The position numbers were made by a program, and so were the translations under genes. Positions 3,308 through 52,454 of a DNA stretch of 64,000 bases are shown here, in pieces (position 1 is the stretch's first letter; each line of letters begins with the position of its first letter). This DNA is from Acidobacteriota bacterium (GTDB lineage: Bacteria; Actinomycetota; Acidimicrobiia; Spongiisociales; UBA5794), in contig JADFQA010000011.1 of the NCBI GenBank assembly GCA_022562055.1, positions 11,273 through 75,272 on the forward strand, in the 5' to 3' direction. The notes beneath the pieces are model-generated. The model was not told the origin of the DNA, searched no databases, and saw only the letters and a program-made list of their open reading frames with translations.

Positions 3308-3771
3308 GGTGGAGACTCGTGGTCGTCGCGTTTGCTGTTGTACTCGCAGCGTGTACGGCCGCGCCATCACCGTCTTCTGAATTTCCGAGTACGACATCGG
3401 CCGTCACGTTGCGGACCGAGACGTCGAGTACGACATCGGCCGTTCCGACAACGACCCTGTCGGCAGGTGATCTGTGTGCCTCCGTGATCGATGTCGAAAT
3501 GAGTCGGCAGGGCGACACGTGGACGTTTGCGTTAACCGTTCTGTCTGACGATGTAGGTGCTACGGAGTACGCAGATCAATGGGAACTCCGTACTTCCGCC
3601 GGCGATGTAATCGCGACCCGGGTTCTCGTTCACGCCCATATCAACGAACAACCGTTTACGCGATCGCTCAGCGGGGTGGAAATACCGCCAGGGACGACGA
3701 CTCTGATCGGCGTGGCCCGCCACGGTGTGGGTGGCTACTGCGGCGACGTGTTCCAGATCGTGTTGCCGTGA
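3304..3771 (+). CDS. lipoprotein, function unknown (contains internal 36-bp tandem repeat encoding S/T-rich linker)
   Basis: ATGA overlap with previous stop; MRWRLVVVAFAVVLAACTAAPS lipobox; direct repeat agtacgacatcggccgt at 3391 and 3427. Confidence 0.6.
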   Translation: MRWRLVVVAFAVVLAACTAAPSPSSEFPSTTSAVTLRTETSSTTSAVPTTTLSAGDLCASVIDVEMSRQGDTWTFALTVLSDDVGATEYADQWELRTSAGDVIATRVLVHAHINEQPFTRSLSGVEIPPGTTTLIGVARHGVGGYCGDVFQIVLP

Positions 3772-6554: not shown

Positions 6555-7762
6555 AACTCGTCGCCGCACTTGTTGCGTCCGTCGCCGGATCGATGTTGGT
6601 GTTCGAGTTCACGATGTCGCCCACGGCCGCCGAGCGCGTGCACCTTCTTCAGATGTTCGTCCCATTGGCTATCTTGACGGCCCTGCTGTGTGGCGTAGTT
6701 CTGCGATTCTCACGCCGCCTCGGATCGCTGCGGACCGAGATCGTTGTGCTTGCGGTCGCCTCGACCGCCATCGTCGTCGCAGCCGCCGCCGTCACGGCAC
6801 GGTTGATGTTTATCGAAGTACACGACTTGCAGTTGCTGTTCGTTGTCCTTGCGTTCGGTCTCTCGCTCGGGATCACCCTGGCGGTCACCGTTGCGCGACC
6901 GTTGGCTGAAGACTTGCGGCGGATGGAACAAGCCGCCCGCCGTGTCGCGAGTGGTGACCTCAGCACAACGACCGGCGTCGTCCGGCCTGACGAACTTGGT
7001 CGGACCGCAGCGGCCTTTGACTCGATGGTTGCCAAACTCGCTGATGTTGACCGCGAGCGTCTCGCGCTAGAAACCGAACGGCGCGAATTCCTCGCCGCCA
7101 TCGGGCATGACCTGCGAACACCCTTGGCGGCTCTGCAGGCAGCAGTGGAGGCACTTGAAGACGGCGTCGCACGCGATCCTGCCCGCTATTTGCGCTCGAT
7201 GCGGAGCGATGTCGATGCGTTGCGACACATGGTTGAGGATCTGTTCACGTTGTCAACGATCGAGGCTGGACGGTATGTCATGAAGTTCCATCCCACCGAT
7301 CTCGGCGAACTCATCGACGAAACGGTCGACGCACTCCACCCAACAGCGGCTTCTTCTGGCGTGACGCTCTCGGTTCCGCACCCTGAGGCACTCCCGATTG
7401 CGGCTGATGACGCCGCACTTCGTCGTGTGTTGCGCAACCTCGTCGACAACGCAATTCGATATGCGGGTGATGGTGGGTCGGTGACCCTCTCTGGCGTAAG
7501 AGTCGGCGACACAGCGGTGGTATCTGTGCGCGATAGCGGTCCGGGGTTTCCCGCTCTGTTCGTGGAGCAGGCCTTCGATTCGTTCTCAATGGTCGATCCG
7601 GCACGGCACCGTGACTCTGGCGGGGCAGGTCTTGGCCTTGCGATTGCCCGCGGTCTCGTCGAAGGGCACGGGGGAATAATCCAGGCATTTCCCGGTCCGG
7701 GCGGGCGTGTCGACTTCAGCTTGCCGATCTCGAGCAGCGCGCCAACGGTGTCTTCGTCGTAG
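6551..7762 (+). CDS. sensor histidine kinase (TM + HAMP + HisKA + HATPase_c)
   Basis: GTG start overlapping RR stop; H-box IGHDLRTPLAALQAAVEAL; N box LRNLVDNAIRYA; G boxes DSGPGF, GLGLAIARGLVEGHGG. Confidence 0.85.
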   Translation: MKLVAALVASVAGSMLVFEFTMSPTAAERVHLLQMFVPLAILTALLCGVVLRFSRRLGSLRTEIVVLAVASTAIVVAAAAVTARLMFIEVHDLQLLFVVLAFGLSLGITLAVTVARPLAEDLRRMEQAARRVASGDLSTTTGVVRPDELGRTAAAFDSMVAKLADVDRERLALETERREFLAAIGHDLRTPLAALQAAVEALEDGVARDPARYLRSMRSDVDALRHMVEDLFTLSTIEAGRYVMKFHPTDLGELIDETVDALHPTAASSGVTLSVPHPEALPIAADDAALRRVLRNLVDNAIRYAGDGGSVTLSGVRVGDTAVVSVRDSGPGFPALFVEQAFDSFSMVDPARHRDSGGAGLGLAIARGLVEGHGGIIQAFPGPGGRVDFSLPISSSAPTVSSS

Positions 7763-7793
7763 GCTGGCGTCTTTCGAGAGAGGGCGTCACACC

Positions 7794-8564
7794 GTGGAGA
7801 TCAGACTGGACGACAAGGCAGTACTCGTGACGGGTGCCAGTCGGGGGATCGGAGAGGCCATCGCGGCGGCGTCGCTCGAGGCCGGGGCGAAAGGCGTTCT
7901 AATCACGTCACGTAGATCGGCGAATCTCGACGAAGCGAAGGTTCGTCTTGCGGACGACCGAGTGGTCTCTGTCGTAGCGCCGGCAGACGACGTTGACGCG
8001 GCAGAGTCGGCCGTGTCTGCATGCATCGAGGCGTTTGGAAGCTGTGACATTCTTGTCAACAACGCCGGTACGAACCCCGCGGCGGGTCCGATGATGACCG
8101 TGGATCTCGGCGCGGTCGGTAAGACGTGGTCGGTGAACCAGCTCGGACCGTTGCTATTCGCACGGGCCGCATGGGCCGGTTGGATGAAAGACCACGGCGG
8201 TGTCATTCTCAACATTGCTTCTGTCGGGGGGTTGACGGTCGGAGAGATGCTCGGCGCCTATAACGTTTCAAAGGCCGCTGTGATCCACATGACGCGCCAA
8301 ATGGCGCAAGAGATGGCTCCCAATGTGCGTGTCAATGCCCTCGCACCGTCGGTGGTGCGCACCCGTCTTGCGGCGGCGTTGTGGGATGGGATTGAGGAGC
8401 GGACAGCCGCTGCCCATCCGCTCGGTCGCATCGGTGAACCCGAGGATGTCGCCAACGCTGCGCTATTTCTCATGTCAGATGCGGCGTCATGGATAACCGG
8501 TGTGACTTTGCCCGTTGACGGTGGTGCAAGCGGTGCGGTCGGGAACCCCGGCCTCGCCCCGTAG
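7794..8564 (+). CDS. SDR family oxidoreductase
   Basis: GTG start at 7794 with GAGAGAGGG RBS; TGASRGIGEAIA cofactor motif, NNAG, catalytic YxxxK (YNVSKAA). Confidence 0.8.
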   Translation: MEIRLDDKAVLVTGASRGIGEAIAAASLEAGAKGVLITSRRSANLDEAKVRLADDRVVSVVAPADDVDAAESAVSACIEAFGSCDILVNNAGTNPAAGPMMTVDLGAVGKTWSVNQLGPLLFARAAWAGWMKDHGGVILNIASVGGLTVGEMLGAYNVSKAAVIHMTRQMAQEMAPNVRVNALAPSVVRTRLAAALWDGIEERTAAAHPLGRIGEPEDVANAALFLMSDAASWITGVTLPVDGGASGAVGNPGLAP

Positions 8565-8593
8565 GACGCGGTGCTACCACTCATCGGCGACGG

Positions 8594-9031
8594 TTACGCC
8601 CATGAATCCTTTTCTTGTGCGTCAATCATGAACTCAAGGGCTGTCTTGAGCTCTTTCTGTCGTTCGTTGAGCTTCGCAATCGTGTCTGCATTGTTTTCGT
8701 CGATCGCCTTGTTTATGGGCAGCGAGTACGCCTCTGGGTCTTGAACACTGAAGGAAGTGGCGGCAAATGGGGCTTTTATTCGTTGGCTATCCAATTCGGA
8801 TAGGCGTCGGTCGATGTGTTCGAGGTCGATGGTCAGCGCGGCAACGCTACGGCCGCGATCGGCCGCGAGTCGGATCTCTTTCCGGTAGTCGTCGAGCTCG
8901 TCCACTAGCGCGGCCCGGTCGGGGTCGTCGTTGGTCATGGTGCGGAGTTTGGAAGTGAGATCGCGAGCGAAGGCAAGAGCTTCGTCGATTGATGTGCTCA
9001 TGGGTGTCCTCGATCGGGTCGAAGTGTCCAC
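8594..9031 (-). CDS. hypothetical helical protein (alternative start ATG 9001 gives ATGA coupling to upstream lhr remnant)
   Basis: 145-aa ORF, coiled-coil-like, lower GC in 3' half; no recognisable motif. Confidence 0.4.
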   Translation of the reverse strand: MDTSTRSRTPMSTSIDEALAFARDLTSKLRTMTNDDPDRAALVDELDDYRKEIRLAADRGRSVAALTIDLEHIDRRLSELDSQRIKAPFAATSFSVQDPEAYSLPINKAIDENNADTIAKLNERQKELKTALEFMIDAQEKDSWA

Positions 9032-9834
9032 CCACGGTAGCCAGGCGCAAAACCGGCGTCACGTAAGGCGGGGCCGATCGACGATTCGGCTGGTGTGAGT
9101 CCGTTGACCTTGCCGACGGCGTGGCTGCGTCCCTGTACCCACTTGACCAATGCTGAAACTACCTGTCGCGGATCAGCGTCCGGTACAACCATCATGTTTT
9201 TTACACCCCGGGTCCAATACGCGGCAATTTCACCCTCAATGAGTACGACTGCGTGTCCGTGTCGTCGTTGGGCCTGATGTCGCCGAGGTCGGACCATGGC
9301 AGTGTCGAGCCGTATGGTTGCGACGGATCTGTGGCGCCAATCACGAACGGTCCCGCGTCAGCGGCACGACGCAACACGTCCACCGCTGTGGGTCGTGCAA
9401 ACTGCGCCCCGCCGAGGCCCTCGACGAAGTAGCCGCGGCGTATCAGGCCAGCCGACTCCAGAGCTGCGAGTACCGGGTAGATAGCGGAGAATCCGCCACG
9501 AACCCCTTCGGCACGGACGCCATCTCTGGTGACAATTCCATGGCGGTCAAGGAGGGTGTTCACGAGTGCAGTAGCGCGTTGCTCCTGCGTGGGGGGTGTG
9601 TCGGGGCGGACGAGTCGTTGGACGAGGGACCAACGTCAGCTTGTCTATCGCTGAAAGAAAAGCGGCCAACGTCTTGCCCGACCCCGTTGGTGCGTGGATC
9701 AACGTGTGTTCGCCGCGTTGAATCGCCTCCCAACCTTTGGTTTGTGCGGGAGTCGCGGACGGAAAGCTCTGCTTGAACCAGCCACCGGTCGCTGACGAAA
9801 ACTGCGTCAAGATGGTCACATTCGTAGGGTACAC
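8998..9834 (-). pseudogene. lhr: Lhr-family ATP-dependent helicase, degraded remnant (N-terminal motif I fragment + C-terminal fragments in three frames)
   Basis: ORF 9547..9834: ...WFKQSFPSATPAQTKGWEAIQRGEHTLIHAPTGSGKTLAAFLSAIDKL (Lhr N-terminus with Walker A) then frame lost; ORFs 9201..9563 (...LIRRGYFVEGLGGAQFARPTAVDVLR) and 8998..9297 (...VVLIEGEIAAYWTRG...) resemble Lhr C-terminal region; total 0.84 kb versus ~4.5 kb for intact lhr. Confidence 0.6.
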
Positions 9835-9866
9835 GTCCGGTGTGACGGATCCTTACTCGCCGTCAT

Positions 9867-9947
9867 AACTACAAAATCGTCTTACGCGCGACATCGCGCG
9901 TAAGAAAACCTATCGGTGGCGCGAACTACAAAATCGTCTTACGCGCG
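9867..9947. repeat. two identical 24-bp direct repeats (aactacaaaatcgtcttacgcgcg at 9867 and 9924) plus perfect 10-bp-stem palindrome cttacgcgcg-acat-cgcgcgtaag (9881..9904)
   Basis: read directly; lies in divergent region between lhr remnant and gene at 10078. Confidence 0.7.
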
Positions 9948-10077
9948 TTGGCGGTCTAAGACGACCCTCGGACTCACGTGTACGCGGAATCGAGGACCCG
10001 CGGCGTGGGTTCAAGGTAGGGCCGCCATCGTGATCCGGTAGGCTGCCGTCGCGCTCACATCCCCCGCGCGCTCGAAA

Positions 10078-10728
10078 TTGCTGTCAAAACGGTCGGAGGA
10101 CCATGTGGATATTGCTGTCAACCTTGTCGAAACCTATCTCCGACTCACCGGGTATTTCACGTTGAGCGAGTTCGAGGTACAGCGGCGTGAGGACAACGGA
10201 ACCTACACCACGATCACGGACATCGACATCATGGCAATCAGGACGCCGGGCACGATTTTTGTAGGCGATCCTCACGGGAACATGCCGAACGCAATTGTGC
10301 TGCAAGACCCGGTGCTCGGACTAGAGGATGATGTCGTCGATGTCATCATTGGAGAGGTAAAACAAGGTGAGGCGGTATTGAATCCGGGGATCAAGGACCA
10401 CGGTGTGCTGCATTCGATGTTGCGAAGAGTCGAATGGTTATATGACACGCCGATTCAGGACGTAGTTCAAGGGCTCCAACGCGACATGACATGTCGGACG
10501 CCGGCGCGCGGAGGAGGCGAGATTCGCACCCGTATTGTCGCATTTGGGAGGGCCGACCGATCAACCGAAAACACGATCTCGATAAGCCAAATGATTGATA
10601 CGATCATCGGGTTCTTTGAAGAGTATGAGGCAGCGTTTCGTCCGCTCCAATTCAAGGATCCGGCACCGGCGTTTCTCAAACTGCTCCACAAGACCGGCTA
10701 CAGCCTTTCCCGAGAGTCCGAGTCCTAG
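10078..10728 (+). CDS. PD-(D/E)xK nuclease-fold protein, function unknown
   Basis: 216 aa; E (VETYLRLTGY) ... D (TDIDIMAIR) ... E-x-K (IIGEVKQGE) in canonical order/spacing of restriction-endonuclease-like fold; locally lower GC. Confidence 0.5.
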   Translation: MLSKRSEDHVDIAVNLVETYLRLTGYFTLSEFEVQRREDNGTYTTITDIDIMAIRTPGTIFVGDPHGNMPNAIVLQDPVLGLEDDVVDVIIGEVKQGEAVLNPGIKDHGVLHSMLRRVEWLYDTPIQDVVQGLQRDMTCRTPARGGGEIRTRIVAFGRADRSTENTISISQMIDTIIGFFEEYEAAFRPLQFKDPAPAFLKLLHKTGYSLSRESES

Positions 10729-52010: not shown

Positions 52011-52083
52011 TGCGGACGTAGCTCAGTTGGTAGAGCGCAACCTTGCCAAGGTTGAGGTCGCCGGTTCGAACCCGGTCGTCCGC
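52011..52083 (+). tRNA. tRNA-Gly (GCC)
   Basis: cloverleaf folded by hand: acceptor GCGGACG/CGUCCGC, anticodon loop UUGCCAA, T-loop GGUUCGAAC; no encoded CCA. Confidence 0.9.
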
Positions 52084-52090
52084 TCGACGA

Positions 52091-52116
52091 ATGGATGGCT
52101 GGTGTCATCCGTTTTT
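52091..52116 (+). terminator. hairpin GGATGgctggtgtCATCC + TTTTTT between tRNA-Gly and tRNA-Cys
   Basis: read directly. Confidence 0.5.
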
Positions 52117-52187
52117 TGGCGACATGGCCGAGTGGCTAGGCAAGGGTCTGCAAAACCCTGTACCCGGGTTCGAATCCCGGTGTCGCC
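52117..52187 (+). tRNA. tRNA-Cys (GCA)
   Basis: acceptor GGCGACA/UGUCGCC, anticodon loop CUGCAAA, T-loop GGUUCGAAUCC. Confidence 0.85.
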
Positions 52188-52211
52188 TCCGCCGGTTATC
52201 ATTCCGGTAAG

Positions 52212-52283
52212 CGGGCGCTTAGCTCAGCGGGAGAGCGCTGCCCTGACACGGTAGAGGTCACTGGTTCGATCCCAGTAGTGCCC
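52212..52283 (+). tRNA. tRNA-Val (GAC)
   Basis: acceptor GGGCGCU/AGUGCCC, anticodon loop CUGACAC, T-loop GGUUCGAUCC. Confidence 0.9.
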
Positions 52284-52454
52284 ACAAACGGTCAGTTCGA
52301 TGGCTTTCGAGTTCTATTCGATCTCGAAACCCATTCACGTTCCGGGTTGTGTTTTCCAGTTTCTGCCTCGCTTATCGGTGAAGCCATGCGGGCGTCCGAC
52401 GCGGTGCTTTGCTTCCATATATTGTTTGTGTAGCTTGAGTGGAAGAGGCAAACA

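Follow-up and report, generated by a model that had tools for sequence, protein, structure and literature searches.

We analyzed a 64,000-nucleotide (nt) stretch of contig JADFQA010000011.1 (NCBI assembly GCA_022562055.1), referred to throughout as the window, in which the locus of lhr, the gene encoding the repair helicase Lhr, holds three short open reading frames (ORFs) on the minus strand. The first, 9834..9547 (95 amino acids, aa), includes the Walker A stretch WFKQSFPSATPAQTKGWEAIQRGEHTLIHAPTGSGKTLAAFL; the second, 9563..9201 (120 aa), includes RRGYFVEGLGGAQFA; and the third, 9297..8998 (99 aa, with an ATG at 9297), includes VVLIEGEIAAYWTRG. The Lhr-like portions of these ORFs, which we call pieces A, B and C, lie in frames 0, 1 and 0 along the minus strand. 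They are listed in Table 1 with the lesions between them and the neighboring features.

Table 1. Features of the lhr locus and other mapped features of the window. Codon numbers are those of the closest intact ortholog, L086.
Feature	Coordinates	Strand	Description and basis
lhr remnant	9819(9834)..8998	minus	three colinear Lhr pieces, 822 nt from GTG 9819
Piece A	9634..9819	minus	codons 1-62; Pfam DEAD, PDB, L086 alignment
Piece B	9270..9635	minus	codons 1257-1378, one base shifted relative to piece A; Pfam WH4_Lhr, 7lhl, L086
Piece C	8998..9270	minus	codons 1379-1468 and natural TGA stop (9000..8998); L086, NF007284
Junction of 3,584-nt internal deletion	9634..9636	minus	L086 codons 63-1256 plus 2 nt lost
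Second lesion, 1-nt deletion in C-run	9270..9272	minus	L086 codon comparison
135-aa gene	8594..9001	minus	intact; predicted lhr operon partner; ATG overlaps lhr stop (ATGA)
Conserved lhr 5' element	9867..9964	minus	two perfect 24-nt repeats, CGCGCGTAAGACGATTTTGTAGTT
216-aa gene	10078..10728	plus	divergent from lhr; syntenic marker of the lhr locus
Short-chain dehydrogenase gene	7707-8564	plus	between the 135-aa gene and the histidine kinase gene
tRNA-Gly(GCC), tRNA-Cys(GCA), tRNA-Val(GAC) cluster	52012-52285	plus	

Piece A matched Pfam DEAD (E=1.1e-8) and residues 9-70 of M. smegmatis Lhr in the PDB (5v9x/7lhl; E=2.9e-15), and it contains helicase motif I, the Walker A sequence APTGSGKT, at 9670-9693. 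The GTG at 9819 is probably its true start: it is the one called by NCBI, and in two relatives (L086 and L085) the ATG of lhr aligns with it. A second in-frame GTG lies further upstream at 9834. The frame of piece A continues past the end of Lhr similarity to a stop at 9547, yielding an ORF of 90 or 95 aa. Piece B matched Pfam WH4_Lhr (E=1.7e-28) and residues 1308-1405 of 7lhl (E=1.1e-22). It extends from the conserved (G)RWSL motif through the last winged-helix (WH) module and contains no in-frame stop, and the 120-aa ORF that carries it ends in a tail of ~30 out-of-frame residues.

Piece C corresponds to the terminal module of the C-terminal domain (CTD), from VVLIEGEIAAYWTRG to GFAPGYRGWTLRP. 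On its own it gave no match in the PDB or Pfam, and it matched the NCBIfam model NF007284 weakly (positions 1448-1534, E=0.005). It aligns without gaps, at 54.4% identity, with the last 90 residues of the Lhr of L086, with the stop codon at the identical position. The Lhr origin of piece C was established through this weak NCBIfam match together with the close ortholog. In the full-length NF007284 model (1538 positions) the three pieces are colinear, at 11-77, 1345-1440 and 1448-1534, and their scores of 59, 72 and 14 bits fall far short of the curated cut-off of 1496 bits for a full-length match.

A first-pass annotation of the window had quoted a peptide from each of these ORFs as Lhr, had given the remnant as 8998-9834 and had placed both later fragments in other frames than the first. 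All three peptides were found on the minus strand where it had put them, and the matches of the first two pieces are far beyond chance. The region holds, but the start is more likely to be the GTG at 9819 than that at 9834; likewise the second fragment is indeed shifted, to frame 1, but the third shares the frame of the first.

In order to place the breakpoints we used codon-level comparison with L086 (Logan SRR14803396), the closest intact ortholog, whose Lhr is 1,468 aa (4,407 nt) long and carries DEAD, Helicase_C, WHD_Lhr, DEAD_assoc and WH2-WH4_Lhr domains. The first relatives found were too distant (53-65% identical) for nucleotide-level breakpoints, and L086 was reached by a search with the protein encoded by the downstream 135-aa gene. 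Relative to L086, the remnant has exactly two lesions, with no further insertion or deletion (indel) and no stop in the ancestral frames of the three pieces. The arithmetic is exact: 4,407 - 3,584 - 1 = 822 nt, which is the span 9819..8998. Approximately 81% of the gene is absent, and the remainder lies in two frames.

The larger lesion is an internal deletion of 3,584 nt. The minus-strand letters at its junction read CTG A(CG)T TGG, where the bracketed 2-nt CG is common to both sides and leaves the endpoint ambiguous; there is no foreign insert. On the 5' side L086 reads GAC CGT CTG ACG / ACG AGT and on the 3' side ACG GGC / CGC TGG TCC CTT GTC, while the window reads GAC AAG CTG ACG TTG GTC, so that ...D K L T is joined to R W S L V... 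Because 3,584 is not a multiple of three, this deletion changes the frame. A second relative, L085, supports the same breakpoint: its DNA is ~80% identical to that of the window as far as ...GCGATAGAC and random beyond, and the end of homology is the junction. We had also considered an N-terminal homology extending through 'TLVPRP' (P-x-P), which was rejected since the DNA homology with both L085 and L086 ends at CTGACG. Relative to five more distant syntenic orthologs, a multiple alignment places 1,185-1,188 codons in the gap.

The smaller lesion is the loss of one nucleotide from a C-run, by which an ancestral CCN CAA (P Q) has become CCCAA. L086 reads TCG CCG CAG CGT CGA (S P Q R R) at this point, and the window reads AGG CCC/AA CGA CGA. 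LGDIRP in frame 1 consequently abuts QRRHGHAVV in frame 0 with a one-base overlap, and the frame of piece A is restored. Programmed frameshifting, or a functional gene split in two, was rejected as an explanation for this arrangement given that 81% of the gene is lost, including all catalytic motifs save motif I.

The first-pass annotation had described ~3.7 kb of helicase core deleted from an lhr of ~4.5 kb, followed by frameshifting. A large deletion with a subsequent frameshift stands, with the size corrected to 3,584 nt from a local gene of 4.4 kb; the core has gone, and most of the CTD with it. The tblastn comparison it had proposed, which we ran with 12 intact Lhr proteins against the whole window, gave matches confined to 9016-9852, and Lhr residues ~72-1250 found no match anywhere in the 64 kb.

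The same lesions are present in other assemblies. An identical junction and an identical 1-nt deletion occur in four other contigs (ENA ERZ23499143 and ERZ23499572, which represent two samples; Logan SRR12886643; and NCBI GCA_022573205.1), each of which aligns with the window without gaps at 99.6-99.95% identity, with 4-19 single-nucleotide polymorphisms (SNPs) and the same gene order. Because of these SNPs the contigs are not copies of one assembly. On these contigs the 120-aa ORF appears as a called protein (P0001, 99% identical), and the NCBI annotation treats the DEAD fragment (90 aa) and the WH4_Lhr fragment (120 aa) as two genes, the latter encoding a hypothetical protein.

Relatives outside this population retain the gene. 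A scan of a genome collection found no near-identical genome; its best Lhr C-termini were 53-64% identical, with metagenome-assembled genomes (MAGs) of Acidimicrobiia on top, and most of the loci found there carry an intact Lhr of ~1,450-1,510 aa. At least nine syntenic relatives retain intact lhr. The flanks of the remnant (LOG-like, MDMPI_N, the 216-aa gene and the short-chain dehydrogenase) are partly syntenic with an intact lhr of ~1,460 aa in six of the loci (L009, L014, L022, L030, L061 and L070). In L086 the order is AAA_5, YajQ, LOG, MDMPI_N, a 225-aa gene, Lhr, a 133-aa gene, histidine kinase, response regulator, Usp, hydrolase and NUDIX, which is that of the window save for the short-chain dehydrogenase gene, found in the window only. 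L085, found in a metagenome scan through its 216-aa neighbor (72% identical), is partly syntenic, and its lhr is open over residues 3-558, where the contig ends. In L087 the C-terminal 693 residues of an Lhr of the same type are followed by a 133-aa gene. The comparison with related strains that the earlier annotation had called for thus finds intact lhr at the same syntenic position, and since the flanking genes are shared, the remnant occupies the ancestral position of lhr.

Some lhr loci in the collections are themselves broken. In five of them (L006, L031, L035, L040 and L050, mostly 'MFD' MAGs with long contigs) lhr is split into ORFs of ~200-670 aa, and the protein collection contains many 'WH4_Lhr-only' proteins of ~200 aa, some with frameshifted tails (P0006, P0055 and P0087). 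These may reflect sequencing frameshifts or further, independent lhr pseudogenes.

Judged by its sequence, the host is an uncultured Acidimicrobiia-like actinobacterium and not a mycobacterium; therefore, the damage-inducibility of mycobacterial Lhr is only background here. One of the four contigs with the same lesions (L003; GCA_022573205.1, JACZUK010000120.1) is labelled 'Acidobacteria bacterium' by NCBI. Its gene content (MDMPI_N), synteny and best homologs indicate Acidimicrobiia (Actinomycetota), and the NCBI label of this MAG looks wrong.

Little of the Lhr architecture is left. Of the superfamily 2 motor, which comprises motif I, motif II (DEAH) through motif VI and both RecA1 and RecA2, only motif I is present, and Pfam detected no match of Helicase_C or ResIII length in the remnant. 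WHD_Lhr (WH1) and DEAD_assoc (domain 4) of Lhr-Core, both present in the L086 protein, were not found in the window. From a CTD of five WH modules and a terminal barrel there remain the last WH module and the terminal ~90 residues, in different frames, and in place of one continuous ORF there are three, of 90/95, 120 and 99 aa. What the locus does show is colinear similarity to both ends of Lhr, the flanking genes of an intact lhr, and reproducible lesions, as expected of an lhr-derived pseudogene.

We next considered how old the inactivation might be. Gapless identity to L086 is 75.8% for piece A, 72.1% for piece B and 54.4% for piece C; the flanking proteins are 69-89% identical, and the product of the 135-aa gene 60%. 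The gradient from A to C is also seen among intact Lhr proteins (~61%, 52% and 35% relative to L086); thus, piece C is intrinsically fast-evolving. At codon positions 1, 2 and 3 the remnant differs from L086 by 26.3%, 20.4% and 56.9%, and the flanks by 17.2%, 10.7% and 55.7%, so the remnant retains a clear coding signature, slightly flatter than that of the flanks. Conserved columns are violated at 8 of 77 sites, inside the range of intact homologs, and we discarded this measure of decay as uninformative; some of the violations, such as FARPTAV, are native to the lineage and also found in L086. Four population SNPs fall inside the remnant, two nonsynonymous and two synonymous, which are too few for a test of relaxed selection. 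The lack of additional stops and indels, together with coding-type substitutions, indicates that the loss would be recent. We infer that inactivation came long after the split from the L086 clade and before the diversity of ≤0.4% among the five assemblies arose.

Between the remnant and the divergent 216-aa gene lies a repeated element. Two copies of CGCGCGTAAGACGATTTTGTAGTT, at 9867-9890 and 9924-9947, are spaced with a period of 57 nt, and each supplies a hairpin with its 3' arm and tail; the stem at 9880-9905, of 11 bp, resembles a terminator on the lhr strand. L086 (two copies, 3416-3497) and L085 (three copies with the same period, 1728-1857) carry the 24-mer with 100% conservation; it is also present in L089 (2-46) and, in degenerate form, in L079 (241-280), always just 5' of lhr. 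It is conserved although the coding DNA is ~72% identical and the hairpin loops differ, and this conservation amid diverged DNA therefore suggests that the lhr operon is served by a sequence-specific cis element. We presume the repeat to be a candidate operator or leader element of the former operon. An Rfam search of 8400-10400 gave no match, a sigma-70 promoter scan found none, and comparison by eye with the LexA and PafBC (RecA-NDp) motifs gave no convincing match. The fold of the whole leader is unexceptional (z = -1.4).

Immediately downstream of the remnant, the 135-aa gene is intact. Its ribosome-binding site, GAGGA, lies inside the 3' end of lhr. Homologs were found only directly after intact lhr, in L086 (8001-8402), L087 (2081-2482) and L079 (4829-5230), with a 4-nt overlap with lhr in L086 and L087. 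The protein is probably helical and belongs to no Pfam or NCBIfam family. On this distribution, the gene appears to be a lineage-restricted lhr operon partner that outlived lhr itself. Its product may be a lineage-specific partner of Lhr in the place that is held in mycobacteria by Nei2.

On the other side of the repeat element, orthologs of the 216-aa gene adjoin lhr in L030, L009, L040, L085 and L086, and the protein matched nothing in Pfam or NCBIfam. A 13-nt direct repeat, GA(A/T)ATTGCTGTCA, occurs twice, 34 nt apart, spanning the start of this gene (window 10074-10120). The short-chain dehydrogenase gene is not at its window position in the close relative L086, and less close relatives have it 3-4 kb downstream of lhr, past FO-synthase-like radical-SAM genes (L009). 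Because its position differs in this way, the locus has undergone more than one rearrangement. The window as a whole has a normal gene density and 59.4% GC. A Pfam scan of ten large ORFs identified FtsK, Dxs, RNase J, RNase Y, an M13 peptidase, an acyltransferase, an AMP-binding enzyme and three proteins of no family, and there was no helicase among the ten.

Taken together, these data make it very probable that the locus is an lhr pseudogene that was inactivated recently and still occupies its ancestral place in the chromosome, that two lesions account for it, and that the Lhr function of this locus has been lost. In the ancestor, a normal lhr of ~1,468 codons would have had a 5' control region of its own, with the translationally coupled 135-aa gene behind it. 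A single deletion of 3,584 nt, by illegitimate recombination or slippage with at most 2 nt of microhomology, would then have taken out codons 63-1256, and with them helicase motifs Ia-VI, WH1, the DEAD_assoc domain and most of the CTD. A separate 1-nt loss in the C-run would have shifted the frame again, and the two events may have occurred in either order. All that would have been left is motif I, a single winged-helix module and the terminal module, distributed over three short ORFs. In M. smegmatis Lhr, residues 1-856 constitute Lhr-Core, and the CTD behind it has five WH modules and a terminal barrel that forms the tetramer (PMC8053096), and in vivo the ATPase (D170/E171), the helicase activity (W597) and the CTD tetramer are all required against mitomycin C and cisplatin (PMC9841417). 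We infer that the remnant would be incapable of ATP binding and hydrolysis, DNA unwinding and tetramerization, and that Lhr function has been lost at this locus.

The metagenomic origin of the window and of the near-identical contigs raises the possibility that an assembler collapsed or mis-joined the region in a genome that has intact lhr, which the first-pass annotation had itself named as grounds for withdrawing its reading. We consider such an artifact extremely improbable. Identical lesions in four independent contigs, from different pipelines and samples and with SNPs but no indels among them, are not what an assembly artifact would produce; the missing 3.6 kb is unique coding sequence and not a collapse-prone repeat, and the two sides of the junction share at most 2 nt. 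A different concern is that the loss is compensated by a second intact lhr, or an Lhr-core paralog, elsewhere, which would make the remnant a redundant duplicate. The window is 64 kb of the genome, and some bacteria do carry paralogs of the Lhr family (PMC8301817, on Lhr diversity), but we think compensation rather unlikely, because the remnant sits at the orthologous syntenic position and hence is the ancestral copy, and because the window contains no other Lhr-like sequence. A weaker point in the same direction is that the best matches to the core come from other organisms or MAGs (L088, with GC 63% and 63% identity to L086, and L089, with GC 64%). A search of the protein collection with the deleted L086 core returned only partial proteins of less than ~770 aa and missed L086 itself, and thus has a length bias.

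The remnant could also have been retained for use, either with the lhr promoter or leader and the 3' end serving the 135-aa gene, or with the 120-aa ORF acting as a small DNA-binding protein. The 135-aa gene does overlap the lhr stop and has its ribosome-binding site inside lhr, the 5' control element is perfectly preserved, both gene ends were spared by the deletion, and ORF 9297..8998 still ends on the ATGA overlap. Yet a young pseudogene free of any selection would look alike; a simple scan found no promoter-like site, no obvious ribosome-binding site precedes the 99-aa ORF, the 120-aa ORF carries its out-of-frame tail, and the four SNPs are uninformative. We therefore regard retention as quite unlikely. 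An extension of the idea, in which the stub is an operon scaffold and the 24-nt hairpin repeats an undescribed lhr-operon control element within an Acidimicrobiia subclade (a damage-responsive operator or leader attenuator) now serving only the 135-aa gene, itself a new Lhr-associated factor with a function independent of Lhr, is speculation to which we would give a small chance. Several points do weigh against the reading as a recently inactivated pseudogene. The ratio of first-plus-second to third position divergence is 0.41, compared with 0.25 in the flanks, which is only modestly higher; it equals the ratio of the intact 135-aa neighbor, and relaxed selection is statistically unsupported. 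The assemblies that share the junction may partly stem from one sampling project, and the remaining ORFs (90, 120 and 99 aa), which the NCBI pipeline called as genes, may keep some residual role.

Recent gene death at lhr would mean that one uncultured Acidimicrobiia-like population, marine or subsurface, no longer has the Lhr crosslink-repair helicase from the ancestral locus, and that two public 'hypothetical protein' entries (90-aa DEAD and 120-aa WH4_Lhr; e.g. IIB04_04605) are pseudogene fragments. With just two clean lesions, the locus is a tidy example of such a death and has little import beyond annotation. The conserved repeat and the small coupled gene, which are mildly novel, offer leads on the regulation and partners of lhr outside mycobacteria.

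What the locus shows is an ordinary gene loss: a recent, unremarkable pseudogene from a well-known helicase family. In comparison with other pseudogenes made by a deletion and a homopolymer frameshift, it has the same non-triplet deletion, scant microhomology, C-run loss and conserved neighbors, and nothing distinctive. In M. leprae decay is reductive and genome-wide; in contrast, the loss of lhr described here is isolated in a densely coding window. Compared with the long bacterial Lhr (M. smegmatis, 1507 aa, 5v9x/7lhl; E. coli, 1538 aa; NF007284), the remnant has the same order of pieces and the same C-terminus, but lacks motifs II-VI, the WH1/domain-4 core and the tetramerization surfaces. 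The operon partner differs as well, being Nei2 in mycobacteria (PMC9841417, PMC11323726) and a 135-aa protein of no known family here. Uracil-DNA glycosylase activity resides in the CTD of E. coli Lhr (PMC10953399), and the retained WH and terminal modules belong to the AlkZ-like subdomain of the CTD (PMC8053096). However, unlike DNA glycosylases of the AlkZ or HTH_42 type, the remnant keeps one of the three WH modules of this subdomain, with a frameshift before the terminal module, and no single ORF could yield a glycosylase-like fold.

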